A stretch of DNA of 64,000 nt from an uncultured Acidobacteriota bacterium (lineage in GTDB: Bacteria > Acidobacteriota > Terriglobia > Terriglobales > Acidobacteriaceae). The notes under the pieces were generated by a model that was not told the origin of the DNA, searched no databases, and saw only the letters and a program-made list of their open reading frames with translations. How positions within the stretch are numbered: position 1 is the stretch's first letter; every line of letters begins with the position of its first letter. The stretch lies in NCBI GenBank assembly GCA_963734415.1, contig CAVTHF010000003.1, forward strand, positions 48,002 through 112,001, in the 5' to 3' direction. Made by a program: the position numbers and the translations under genes. This document shows, in pieces, positions 507 through 4,539 of this stretch.

Positions 507-703
507 CGTCACGTTTAGTTTAGATGACTATCTCCCCTTGGTCGTCTGCCTTTGGTCGTTGGCCATTCGTCCAAGTTGTTACTGGAGTGGCACTTTCCCG
601 CTCCTCCCTTCTACAGGATTCTCAATTGAAACCGGCAAGCGTCGGGCGGCATCGTTAATAGTACGGTCAGTCGCCGCGCGGCCCCGTGGAGAGGAGAGGA
701 TCA

Positions 704-1261
704 ATGGCCCGCATTTCAGGATTGGAGAAGAAAGAGGCGCCGTGGCACCTGCGTTGGTTCTATGGCGTGATGCGCAAAATGTTCGGGAAGGACCTGACAC
801 CAGCCAAGATTCAGATGCGTGTGCCCGGTGTGGTGTGGGGCGGCATCGCGATGGAAGCCGCCATGCGCAAGCGGCGGGTGTCGCTTCGATTCGTCCAATT
901 GGCGACCATACGAACCGCCGCCCGCGTAGGCTGCCCATTTTGAGTGGACATCAATTCTGCCGTGGGCAGAAAAGCTGGATTGAGCGACGAAAAGTTGCTG
1001 GCCGTTCGTGGAAGCCATCTCGAAGTATTCAATGATGTCGAGCGCCTGGTGATCGAACTGGCGGACGCCATGGCAACCACGCCGGCGAACATCTCAGACG
1101 ACCTGTACCGGCGTCTGCGCGAGCATTTTTCCGAAGAACAACTGCTGGAGTTGGGGTCACGAATTGCGTTTGAAAACTATCGCGCTCGCCTCAACCGCGT
1201 CTTCGACGTCGAGAGCGATGAGCTTTACGCGCCCGGAAGCGGGGACGCTGTCGCCGCCTAA
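704..1261 (+). CDS. Carboxymuconolactone decarboxylase / AhpD-like family protein with an in-frame TGA (941-943) where the second Cys of the CxxC motif is expected. Candidate selenoprotein; alternatively a nonsense pseudogene.
   Basis: ORFs 686-943 and 944-1261 are contiguous in one frame and separated only by TGA. The joined product reads ...TIRTAARVGCPF[TGA]VDINSAVGRKAGLSDEKLLAVRG...ERLVIELADAMATTP...LELGSRIAFENYRARLN, matching the CMD-family layout. The ATG at 704 is preceded by GGAGAGGAGAGGA. Confidence 0.6.
955..971 (+). promoter_or_regulatory. Candidate bacterial SECIS-like hairpin downstream of the in-frame UGA
   Basis: TTCTGCC-GTG-GGCAGAA forms a perfect 7-bp stem with a G-containing triloop. 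It is 17 nt in total and starts 11 nt after the UGA at 941-943. Confidence 0.35.
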
Positions 1262-1309: not shown

Positions 1310-1732
1310 TCAACGGGCGAAATTGGGTTGAGCATTGTTCCTTGTCCTGCCGCCGAGCGACAGAATTGCGAGCACGCACCCCACTACCTCGAGCGCTAGA
1401 AGGACGAAGACGCTTGCGTTGAACCGGGCAGTCCAATCACCGGCGGCGACCATGAAAATATTATTTGCTGATGAATGCAGGAAGTGCTCATAAAGATCAG
1501 CACTTGAGGCAGCCAAGAAGAAAATCAACGACACCGCCCCAGAGAGTCTATCGCTGAGCTTCCACAACGCAATCGATACAACCAAGTGCCCAAACGTTAT
1601 CAACGTTAAGGCCAACCAACTAACGTTGTTGTTTGGCGGTGGCAGAACCTTGGCTGCAAGGAACAGGTGTACGATAGCGACGATCCAGTGTGCGACAACA
1701 ATTAATAGAGTGAGCCTGCGTCGTCTTGGCAT
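1310..1732 (-). CDS. Hypothetical membrane protein (about 4 TM helices)
   Basis: 140-aa ORF with four hydrophobic stretches (LIVVAHWIVAIVHLFLAA, LALTLITFGHLVVSIALW, AVSLIFFLAASS, VFVLLALEVVGCVLAILSL). The region is visibly lower in G+C than its flanks. Confidence 0.5.
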   Translation of the reverse strand: MPRRRRLTLLIVVAHWIVAIVHLFLAAKVLPPPNNNVSWLALTLITFGHLVVSIALWKLSDRLSGAVSLIFFLAASSADLYEHFLHSSANNIFMVAAGDWTARFNASVFVLLALEVVGCVLAILSLGGRTRNNAQPNFAR

Positions 1733-1841: not shown

Positions 1842-2744
1842 CTAGCTCGCCAGCGGCAGAACATGCGCCACAAGCTCCTTAAGAAACTGATCGGAGTTCA
1901 TAAACATTGCAAAGTGGCCTCCGGGAATCGGTACAAATTCTTTTCGAGGAGCCTGAATCCCTTCGAGATATTTCCGGGCAAGGTCGGTCGGCGTAGTGAA
2001 ATCTTCGGTCCCTTCGAAGAAAAAGATCGGGATTGCAAACTTGAGGCCGAGTTCCTTCATGGTTTCGGACCGGGCTTGAGGCACGAGCTGTTCTCCGCTG
2101 AAAATCTGGCCATCGACGGAATCGTTGATATCTCGCACAGAACCACCGGGAGCCGCCAGAGTGAGTCCCAGGGTCCCGTAGAGGAATCGATCCGCGCCTT
2201 CAAAACGGTTCGACCACTTGCGCTGCACCTGGTAGCCCTGGCCCGATGTGTAGGGCGGCGGACCGATGCTTTTCAGCTCCCCGATGGCTGGCTGGTTGCC
2301 AATAGCCTGAGCTTTCTTCAATAAGGCTTCATAAGCCACTGTGTAACTCCGAGTTTCGTCGGCGACTTGACCGGTGCCAACGTAGGCGAAGAAAAGGTCG
2401 GGTCGGTCTCGAATCATTCGCAGACCCATGATCGTGCCAAAGGAATGCGCGAGCAGAACTACTTTGCGCTTCCCCAGATGCTTACACAGGTATTCCGTTA
2501 ATTCGATTCCATCCCGCGTCATGCGATCCAGCGTCATGGTAGGCGCAACTGATGGGCCGGATTTGCTGAGCGTCTTCCCCGCACCACGCTGGTCCCACTG
2601 AACCACCGTGAACTGCGCTTCCCACGGAGCGAACATGGCGAATGACCAGGGATTCGTCACGTCGCCCGGCCCTCCAATGGCGGCACTGTGTGGGAGGTCA
2701 GTCATGGCGCGCAACCGGTCGCAATCTACAGCTTTTGTGCACAA
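1842..2744 (-). CDS. Alpha/beta hydrolase (proline-iminopeptidase-like), apparently 5'-truncated
   Basis: Motifs WDQRGAGKT, the nucleophile elbow LLAHSFGTIMG and a C-terminal PGGHFAM are present. Family-like sequence starts only at about aa 20 (AAIGGPG, where HGGPG is expected). No signal peptide or first beta strands are present. Confidence 0.7.
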   Translation of the reverse strand: MCTKAVDCDRLRAMTDLPHSAAIGGPGDVTNPWSFAMFAPWEAQFTVVQWDQRGAGKTLSKSGPSVAPTMTLDRMTRDGIELTEYLCKHLGKRKVVLLAHSFGTIMGLRMIRDRPDLFFAYVGTGQVADETRSYTVAYEALLKKAQAIGNQPAIGELKSIGPPPYTSGQGYQVQRKWSNRFEGADRFLYGTLGLTLAAPGGSVRDINDSVDGQIFSGEQLVPQARSETMKELGLKFAIPIFFFEGTEDFTTPTDLARKYLEGIQAPRKEFVPIPGGHFAMFMNSDQFLKELVAHVLPLAS

Positions 2745-2920: not shown

Positions 2921-3376
2921 CTAGCTCCCGCCCTTCGCCTCCATCCAACTCTGCAAAATCAGCACTGCCGCCATCTGATCCACCACTTCCCCCCGACGCT
3001 TGATCGACATCTCGGTCTCGCGCAGCAAGCGGTTGGCCTGGGCCGAAGTCAGGCGTTCGTCCCAAAGGTGCACCGGCAACTTGAAGCGCTTCCGCAAGTC
3101 CTCGGCGAAGAGCTGCATCTTCTCTGCTTGGATTCCCTCCGCCCCGCTCATGCGCAGCGGCAGCCCGACCACGATTTCCGACACGCCATGCTCTTGGATC
3201 ACTTTCTCAAGAGCTGCAAGATCCGTCCTCTTATTCTTGCGCTGGATGGTCTCTAACCCCTGTGCGGTGATCCCTAGCAGGTCAGAGATGGCTACTCCGA
3301 TTCGTCTGGCGCCCACATCAAGGCCCAATACGCGCGCCGACGTCCGTTCCGGGCCGACAGGTGGTGACGAGGGCAC
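2921..3376 (-). CDS. ruvX: Putative pre-16S rRNA nuclease / Holliday junction resolvase-like protein RuvX (YqgF)
   Basis: VLGLDVGARRIGVAISD...IVVGLPLRMSG...VHLWDERLTSAQA are classic YqgF motifs. Confidence 0.9.
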   Translation of the reverse strand: MPSSPPVGPERTSARVLGLDVGARRIGVAISDLLGITAQGLETIQRKNKRTDLAALEKVIQEHGVSEIVVGLPLRMSGAEGIQAEKMQLFAEDLRKRFKLPVHLWDERLTSAQANRLLRETEMSIKRRGEVVDQMAAVLILQSWMEAKGGS

Positions 3377-3453: not shown

Positions 3454-4539
3454 ATGGCAGACGACGAAATACAACTCGAACCCGAGGAGATCATGCCAGT
3501 GCCGAGGCCGGATCCTCCTCCCAAGACGCGCTGGCACTGGGCGCTGAACATCATTGGCATTGCCGGCATCCTGGCCTTGTGCTACTACGGCGAAGCCGTC
3601 CTCGCCGTCATTCTGATTTCGGTGCTGCTGGCGTTTGTACTGGCCCCGGTTGTGGACTTCCTTTCCTGGCTGCACCTGCCCCGCGGCCTGGCGGCTTTTG
3701 TCGCCATTGCTCTCTTGCTGGTAGCGATTGCGGGAACTGTCTACTACTCCTATAACCAGGCGGTGGTGTTGGTCCAGGACCTGCCCAAGTACACCACTCG
3801 GCTGCGTGAAGAGGTCATGCGCTTCCGCAAACAGGCGGAGAGCCTGGAAACGCTGGGCGGCGAGCCTGAAGAGAAAGGTGTGGTCAACGTCCGCTCCGCC
3901 ACCAGCTGGAACGACCTGCTCACCCGCGGCTTCGGATCCGCCTCCACCCTGCTGCTGGCTTGCTCATTTATTCCGTTCCTGACCTTCTTCATGCTGACCT
4001 GGCAGCAGCACGTCCGCTCGGCCACGGTCATGCTGTTTCCCTTAGAGAACCGCAACACCGTTTACGTCATGCTGGGCCTGATTTCGGCCATGATCCGCAG
4101 CTTCATGGTAGGTAATCTGCTGATCGGCTTGGTTCTGGGCGCCGCCAGCACGCTAGTGTTCGGAGTCCTGCATCTGCCCTTTTTCTATTTCGTGGGCTTC
4201 ATCAGCGGATTCCTCAGCCTGGTTCCCTACATGGGCCTGCTGCTCGCCATGGTGCCACCGATTTTTGTAGGCCTCGGGCACGTCCAGGTTGCCGACCTTC
4301 TGACCATGCTGGTGACCATTTTGGGACTGCACATGATCGCCCTCAACGTCCTCTACCCCAAGTTCCTGGGCAACCGGCTGCAACTGAATCCGCTGGCTGT
4401 GACCATGAGCTTGCTGGTGTGGGGCGGGTTGTGGGGAGCCATGGGCCTGGTCCTGGCCATCCCGATTACCGCCGCCATGAAGATCGTCTTTGACCACGTC
4501 GAGACCTTAAGACCCTATGGGGCCTGGTTGGGAGAGTAG
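3454..4539 (+). CDS. AI-2E family transporter (PerM/UPF0118)
   Basis: 361-aa polytopic membrane protein with the C-terminal signature LLVWGGLWGAMGLVLAIPITAAMKIVFDH. Confidence 0.85.
   Translation: MADDEIQLEPEEIMPVPRPDPPPKTRWHWALNIIGIAGILALCYYGEAVLAVILISVLLAFVLAPVVDFLSWLHLPRGLAAFVAIALLLVAIAGTVYYSYNQAVVLVQDLPKYTTRLREEVMRFRKQAESLETLGGEPEEKGVVNVRSATSWNDLLTRGFGSASTLLLACSFIPFLTFFMLTWQQHVRSATVMLFPLENRNTVYVMLGLISAMIRSFMVGNLLIGLVLGAASTLVFGVLHLPFFYFVGFISGFLSLVPYMGLLLAMVPPIFVGLGHVQVADLLTMLVTILGLHMIALNVLYPKFLGNRLQLNPLAVTMSLLVWGGLWGAMGLVLAIPITAAMKIVFDHVETLRPYGAWLGE

Follow-up and report, generated by a model that had tools for sequence, protein, structure and literature searches.

In this work we asked whether an in-frame TGA codon lying near the start of a 64-kb stretch of DNA from an uncultured Acidobacteriota bacterium (hereafter the window, meaning the whole of the 64,000 nucleotides analysed) ends the gene in which it stands or is decoded as selenocysteine (Sec). 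In a listing of open reading frames (ORFs) the locus appears as two abutting forward-strand ORFs, 686..943 (85 aa) and 944..1261 (105 aa), that share one frame, and translation of positions 704-1261 yields 185 residues whose sole internal stop is codon 80, in the context ...ARVGCPF*VDINSAVGRK.... We put a probability of about 90% on the reading that 704..1261 is one gene, encoding an AhpD/YciW-type thiol-selenol oxidoreductase with a carboxymuconolactone-decarboxylase (CMD) fold and a predicted active site of Cys77-Pro-Phe-Sec80; the complete coding sequence (forward strand, terminal stop TAA at 1259-1261) is assigned from the continuous frame, homologs, a Pfam match, an AlphaFold (AF2) model and codon variation. 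An original prediction made from the DNA letters had described a single frame broken solely by the TGA at 941-943 and followed by a perfect hairpin at 955-971, and the ORF listing, translation and RNA folding confirm both. The start is placed at the ATG at 704 and not at the GTG at 686 because the homologs all begin with MARISGLEKK at that ATG. A purine-rich stretch read from the sequence (GGAGAGGAGAGG, 688..699, forward strand), lying 4 nt 5' of this ATG, is a putative Shine-Dalgarno-like element.

The in-frame TGA is a conserved feature of the family. A scan of species-representative genomes returned 483 genomes with a relative, from which we kept 80 loci, each from a different GTDB species, at 73-83% amino-acid identity. 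These loci belong to Pyrinomonadaceae, Terriglobales, Bryobacteraceae, Udaeobacter and other Chthoniobacterales, and one Nitrospirota, and thus to the phyla Acidobacteriota, Verrucomicrobiota and Nitrospirota. The same alignment column holds TGA in all 80 of them, and likewise in four more diverged clades, namely L086/L087 (from a Dehalococcoidia metagenome-assembled genome, or MAG), L088, L089/L090 and L091. Members of L086/L087, L089/L090 and L091 are called as two genes, with an upstream ORF of ~80 residues ending exactly at the start of the called gene, and L088 is called as a single full-length gene with Trp at the TGA. Variation among 81 sequences is dominated by third codon positions in each half of the gene, with minor-allele fractions at codon positions 1, 2 and 3 of 0.13, 0.08 and 0.49 upstream of the TGA and 0.18, 0.09 and 0.45 downstream, so that both sides of the TGA are under coding constraint. 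TGA also ends 23 of the 51 long ORFs in the window, making it the most used ordinary stop there, and terminates this very gene in 36 of the 81 relatives, which argues that recoding is local and that the genetic code has not been reassigned. When the window was scanned heuristically for other ORFs broken by TGA, the 150 candidates obtained were essentially noise, and the present gene was the only one with a CxxU or UxxC context.

The position of the TGA within the protein points to a redox role for the residue that it encodes. In profile searches, for which the stop codon was modelled as Cys, residues 51-102 passed the gathering threshold of the Pfam CMD family (PF02627; 28.4 bits against a cut-off of 23), and the top NCBIfam match was NF053654, 'GroundWater_YciW, YciW-related (seleno)protein' (E = 1.9e-29). 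The alignment to NF053654, a family that includes Sec forms, pairs residues 1-175 with model positions 1-177 of 179 and so runs from end to end, but its 102.7 bits fall short of the equivalog cut-off of 310; the window protein is therefore best placed in a sister subfamily that is homologous over its full length, and not within NF053654 itself. It likewise did not reach the cut-off of TIGR01926, a peroxidase-related enzyme model (28.9 against 81.8 bits) which is the model given for 'AhpD-like protein' in a selenoprotein review. A sequence search of the PDB returned AhpD/CMD proteins at E = 7e-10 to 4e-7: Atu0492 (2gmy), Pseudomonas aeruginosa PA0269/AhpD (2ijc, 2o4d, 7xw1) and the debrominase Bmp8 (6ohi). 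These solved CxxC proteins share the pattern G-C-x-F/Y-C-V-D/N, and because G-C-P-F-[TGA]-V-D aligns to GCAFCVD of 2gmy and GCAYCVN of 2ijc, the TGA corresponds to the second Cys of CxxC. Cys77 (TGC at 932..934, forward strand), aligned with the first Cys of the same two motifs, is invariant in the 81 sequences (TGT in 53, TGC in 28). The TGA column further matches Cys in Nocardia CMD proteins (CEFC) and a TGC codon in the relative P0029.

Structure prediction agrees with this assignment. The AF2 model is all-helical with a mean pLDDT of 75, rising mostly above 85 in the core (residues 61-160), and it places the CxxU motif (77-80) in a loop directly before a helix at 82-90. Foldseek matches in the PDB at E <= 0.001 were exclusively AhpD/CMD structures, the best being 2ijc, 2gmy and 7xw1, with a probability of 1.00 and target-normalised TM-scores of 0.74-0.77 for 2ijc, 2gmy, 2o4d and 7xw1 and 0.56 for Bmp8. 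An AhpD-like fold is accordingly predicted for the product of 704-1261. The window protein differs from the solved proteins in its modest identity to them (~23%), in its predicted use of Sec where they use Cys, and in an additional conserved N-terminal region of ~45 residues (APWHLRWFYG...), modelled at low confidence, that they do not have.

Immediately 3' of the TGA (941..943, forward strand) lies a structure resembling a bacterial Sec insertion sequence (SECIS). Following an 11-nt spacer (944..954, forward strand) whose synonymous positions are free to vary, judging from column composition, the sequence TTCTGCC GTG GGCAGAA (955..971, forward strand) forms a perfect 7-bp stem (955-961 with 965-971) closed by a 3-nt apical loop, GUG (962-964), and this hairpin is present in both the minimum free energy (MFE) and the centroid folds, at -8.4 kcal/mol for the 17 nt and -9.1 kcal/mol with one flanking pair as context. 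Under the published consensus for bacterial SECIS elements (bSECIS), the loop measures 3-9 nt and the stem 4-16 bp, the UGA and the loop are separated by 16-37 nt, the MFE is at most -7.5 kcal/mol, and one of the first two loop bases is a G, usually with a G or U after it (PMC13188914). The window hairpin agrees with this consensus in every respect, having a 3-nt loop that begins G-U, 7 bp, 18 nt from UGA to loop and -8.4 kcal/mol. Counting both strands, the window has 1866 TGA trinucleotides, and just 11 of them (0.6%) are followed by an equivalent hairpin (at least 7 bp, perfect, with a 3-9 nt loop, a G in the first two loop bases and a loop start 16-37 nt downstream).

The geometry is also that of the classical E. 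coli element. In fdhF of E. coli MG1655 the UGA is codon 140, and after an 11-nt spacer the upper stem-loop (GGUUGCAGGUCUGCACC) spans nt 15-31, with the U of UGA taken as nt 1; the window hairpin is likewise 17 nt long, spans the same nt 15-31, and has a G followed by a U in its apical loop. It differs from the fdhF element in that it lacks the bulged U, has a triloop (GUG, or GUN across relatives) where fdhF has the tetraloop GGUC, forms a 7-bp stem without interruption, and shows neither a conserved lower helix nor sequence similarity, and it is therefore fdhF-like in geometry and not an fdhF-type SECIS in detail. The likeness to fdhF in length and spacing, the loop G and the caveat of a triloop lacking a bulged U had all been raised in the original prediction, and each holds against the E. 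coli sequence and the published model. Taken by itself the hairpin in this single sequence is no more than suggestive, and the weight of the case rests on comparative data. A second predicted hairpin at ~986-1001 (in the region GCGACG AAAAG UUGCUG) was dropped as not conserved in the RNAalifold analysis and is probably fortuitous.

Across the 81 sequences the codons that form the stem are nearly frozen at positions where the peptide would allow change. The Ser and Gly codons are TCT and GGC throughout (81 of 81 each), the Arg codon is AGA in 77 of 80, the Ala codon GCC in 76 of 81 and the Asn codon AAT in 78 of 81; Arg elsewhere in the gene is encoded by CGN. The relative synonymous entropies of the stem Asn, Ser, Ala, Gly and Arg codons (0.23, 0, 0.21, 0 and 0.09) are the five lowest among 70 codons with a conserved amino acid (mean 0.11 against 0.84; Mann-Whitney p = 1e-4). 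In the loop, by contrast, the Val codon is free at its third base (G in 51, C in 16, T in 10 and A in 4), and the Ala and Gly codons next to the stem use all four bases. Although nucleotide conservation here must be partly protein-driven, because the stem overlaps the conserved peptide NSAVGRK, constraint on that peptide cannot explain the frozen synonymous positions, and this pattern of codon usage indicates that the hairpin is under selection at the nucleotide level.

Pairing is also maintained where the sequence diverges. In the diverged clades, all of which carry the hairpin at the same distance from the TGA, the outer U-A pair is replaced by C-G in L089 (CUCUGCC-GUA-GGCAGAG) and L091 (CUCUGCC-GUG-GGCAGAG), whereas L086 (CACUGC-CGGGA-GCAGUG) combines a U-A to C-G with a U-A to A-U exchange in a segment whose peptide has changed to TNTAGSS; the hairpin of L088 reads AUUCUGCC-GGA-GGCAGAAU. 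Overall, U-A to C-G is seen in 3 diverged sequences and U-A to A-U in 1. When 12 sequences were aligned, compensatory changes were seen at two of the seven pairs; the covariation score was 0.173 against 0.077 for shuffled alignments, of which 1 in 500 attained it, and in the true register 95% of cells are paired, against 39-56% in slid registers. In the one Nocardia species examined, N. farcinica, a homolog with a true Cys (CEFC, TGC) has no hairpin at the corresponding place.

Together these results support the selenoprotein reading first proposed for this locus: orthologs carry TGA and not TGY in the critical column, in the 80 species-level loci as in the four diverged clades; conservation of the hairpin extends to synonymous sites and is joined by compensatory changes, as the proposed check on co-variation had asked; the hairpin fits the bSECIS model; and the TGA aligns with the second Cys of CxxC. 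Following the E. coli paradigm, SelB carrying Sec-tRNA(Sec) would bind the 17-nt hairpin 11 nt past the UGA during translation and place its tRNA at the UGA within the ribosomal A site, with Sec80 being inserted in place of termination. The Cys77-x-x-Sec80 pair would be expected to cycle between a selenenylsulfide and a reduced form, in the manner of disulfide cycling in AhpD-family CxxC proteins, and in its reduced form may, by likeness to that family, reduce a peroxide, a peroxiredoxin or another oxidised substrate.

Several observations weigh against this interpretation. Beyond the overlap with a conserved peptide mentioned above, the stem is invariant within the main clade, for which RNAalifold gives a 5-bp consensus with zero covariation, so that four diverged sequences and two outer pairs supply the whole covariation signal, with no variation in the core four pairs. 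The 63-nt segment is not unusually stable as a whole (z = -1.62), and no Rfam family was found for the hairpin, either in the whole window at gathering thresholds or in 900-1060 at E <= 10; the sole Rfam match, to an lncRNA model, was a chance match. A Cys form, P0029 (L083:62-607, TGC, 50% identity), keeps the identical hairpin TTCTGCC GTG GGCAGAA. As the nearest relatives of P0029 (75-83% identity) are all split at TGA, it is best read as a recent Sec-to-Cys convert, and its hairpin is probably a fossil SECIS. Finally, searches with ARAGORN, motif regular expressions and tblastn with E. coli SelA, SelB and SelD found no tRNA-Sec, selA, selB or selD in the 64-kb window or in ~1.2 Mb of related loci, comprising the 80 loci and those added later; since each locus covers at most 20 kb of a multi-megabase genome, such an outcome is to be expected by chance and is uninformative about whole genomes. 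Indirect support for Sec use in this phylum comes from the literature, in which three selenoprotein families were recorded in Acidobacteria in a 2006 survey (PMC1794560) and Occallatibacter riparius is described as a Sec user with three selenoprotein genes (PMC12013277).

Among the alternatives, the one that survives best is that the UGA is read through as a residue other than Sec, whether by hairpin-stimulated, near-cognate insertion of Trp, Cys or Arg or by SelB-dependent insertion of Cys via a tRNA-Sec-like tRNA. Some bacteria are reported to have such tRNAs, none of the sequences searched showed Sec machinery, and occasional relatives have TGC (P0029, P0002, P0009) or CGA (P0010) at the site, so that Cys is functionally tolerated there. 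We nevertheless regard such read-through as very unlikely, given that the UGA falls exactly at the redox Cys of a family catalogued as CxxU selenoproteins, that the size, loop sequence and spacing of the hairpin fit the SelB-type SECIS model, and that Sec use is documented in Acidobacteria. Furthermore, were Cys the residue wanted, TGY would be far simpler than a UGA accompanied by a 17-nt element across hundreds of species. A related and similarly improbable scenario is that in at least some of these soil lineages the UGA and hairpin are decoded as another residue, e.g. Cys, in a form of recoding that would depend on the SECIS and be independent of selenium; if true, a one-gene cassette moving by horizontal transfer would have carried a selenium-independent recoding system through Acidobacteriota, Verrucomicrobiota, Nitrospirota and Chloroflexota.

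Slightly less probable again is that the hairpin is conserved for a reason unconnected with Sec, through constraint on NSAVGRK combined with codon bias or through another RNA function, and that something else recodes the UGA. The stem does lie within the most conserved peptide of the protein, and both the hairpin of P0029 and the lack of covariation within the main clade could be taken in this sense. However, peptide constraint could not fix the Ser, Gly and Arg codons as observed while the neighbouring Ala and Gly codons use all four bases, and compensatory changes preserve pairing where the peptide itself differs (TNTAGSS, HSAVGRD). The probable origin of P0029 as a recent convert, with its closest relatives split at TGA, and the lack of the hairpin in the distant Nocardia Cys homolog also argue for a link between hairpin and Sec.

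We consider it very improbable that the locus encodes two separate polypeptides, with translation stopping at the TGA and restarting just after it to give a naturally split AhpD-like protein. Gene callers do annotate the halves as two abutting genes, and in the window the TGA is directly followed by GTG, which could serve as a start, but the codon at this place is GTG in just 29 of the 81 sequences and ATA, GTT, GTA, GTC, ATT or ATC in the other 52, so that separate initiation of the second half is not conserved; moreover, the break would fall mid-fold inside the CxxC, between its two redox residues, and the frozen hairpin would be left unexplained. The weakest alternative, which the original prediction had named as the competing explanation, is that a nonsense mutation or sequencing error turned a Cys codon (TGY) into TGA in what would be a pseudogene, next to a coincidental hairpin: TGC to TGA is a single-base change, the earlier reading noted other gene lesions in the window, and the deposited record calls just a 105-residue fragment, but this explanation is refuted by TGA in 80 of 80 independent species genomes and four diverged clades (loci that are not copies of one contaminant, because about half of their third codon positions differ), by equal coding constraint up- and downstream of the TGA, and by conservation of the hairpin at synonymous sites.

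Read as a selenoprotein gene, the locus belongs with a group that has long been recognized. AhpD-like CxxU proteins are catalogued as selenoproteins (PMC2398784, PMC9312934, PMC13188914), in accordance with the original prediction, and are among the most abundant prokaryotic selenoprotein families, with the entries 'AhpD-like 1 (COG2128)' and 'AhpD-like 2 (pfam02627)', the latter enriched in non-marine samples (PMC2398784). Zhang and Gladyshev described the AhpD-like (COG2128/YciW) family on the basis of Sargasso Sea and GOS metagenomes, and it is listed in later reviews (PMC9312934, PMC13188914). The window gene shares with it the AhpD/CMD fold, Sec in place of the second Cys of CxxC, and a SECIS inside the coding region immediately 3' of the UGA; homologs of the window gene carry the JGI label 'alkylhydroperoxidase family enzyme', as does COG2128. 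Unlike the marine-plankton family, the subfamily described here comes from soil Acidobacteriota, Verrucomicrobiota, Nitrospirota and Chloroflexota, and it falls below the curated cut-offs of the nearest NCBIfam models. The gene is thus almost certainly an ordinary further member of a selenoprotein family known since 2005, and probably represents a soil-specific subfamily outside current NCBIfam cut-offs.

The way in which this subfamily is recorded in databases obscures its active site. A database search returned 1191 homologs, of which the best 120 are mostly fragments, 101-125 residues long and beginning right after the TGA, the few 'full-length' calls having W, G, R or C in the TGA column. 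Trp stands at the Sec column in P0125 (L088:574-1131), P0001, P0003-P0008, P0012 and P0014, and Gly in P0013. For P0125 the DNA shows TGA, and the recorded protein is not obtained by translation with code 11; the full-length calls with W or G, which come from short metagenome contigs, were apparently made with genetic code 4 or 25, which lengthened the ORF. In the window the C-terminal ORF (944-1261) is the 105-residue protein P0121 in NCBI/ENA, and since the deposited record holds P0121 alone, the N-terminal 79 residues and the Sec are missing from the annotation. Calls that split the gene into pieces of ~80 and 105 residues, or that are made with code 4 or 25, therefore cause the active-site residue, and often the N-terminal half, to be lost from protein databases. 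Scans of metagenome contigs for relatives with Cys, one with P0029 as query and one with a degenerate TGY DNA pattern, were empty, and as neither had a positive control we do not infer that Cys forms are rare.

Other relatives show individual peculiarities. P0010 (L084:886-1431) reads CGA (Arg) in the Sec column, and in its hairpin the closing pair has A in place of G (GTG AGC, Gly to Ser); it may be a decaying copy or reflect errors on its 1.6-kb contig. In P0028 (309 aa, on a 999-nt contig) a YbaK/Cys-tRNA(Pro) deacylase domain (PF04073) is joined to 71% of the AhpD-like protein, which could be a real fusion or a read-through gene call. At L091:12333-20354, from the MAG GCA_964492175.1, a type VI secretion cluster (VipA/VipB, ImpA, TagF, IcmF) and the selenoprotein gene are ~2 kb apart, a closeness that is probably coincidental.

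Genomic context offers little further indication of function. In the window the gene is followed by a 140-residue membrane-protein ORF (1310-1732, reverse strand), an ORF judged by eye to be alpha/beta-hydrolase-like (1842-2744, reverse strand), RuvX (2921-3376, reverse strand) and an AI-2E family transporter (3454-4539, forward strand), and on a near-identical Logan contig (L085) homologs of CarD and GreA come next. These neighbours are housekeeping genes with no evident link to the selenoprotein. Among 81 loci no cluster of neighbouring genes was conserved in more than 23, and those that recurred were lineage-specific, so that no partner gene can be inferred. The combination of 73-83% identity and a near-identical hairpin across Acidobacteriota, Verrucomicrobiota and Nitrospirota with neighbourhoods that are not conserved suggests horizontal spread, and is consistent with a self-contained one-gene cassette having passed among soil bacteria.

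The finding leaves the current picture of Sec decoding unchanged; its main interest lies in the breadth of the family across soil phyla and in a systematic annotation artefact that affects selenoprotein genes. The near-invariant 17-nt hairpin retained across phyla represents a compact natural minimal SECIS, which could help to define SelB recognition in these organisms. Among abundant soil lineages, including Pyrinomonadaceae, Terriglobales and Udaeobacter, selenium-dependent redox proteins of the AhpD/YciW type appear to be common, and the searchable literature hardly discusses selenium use by these lineages.

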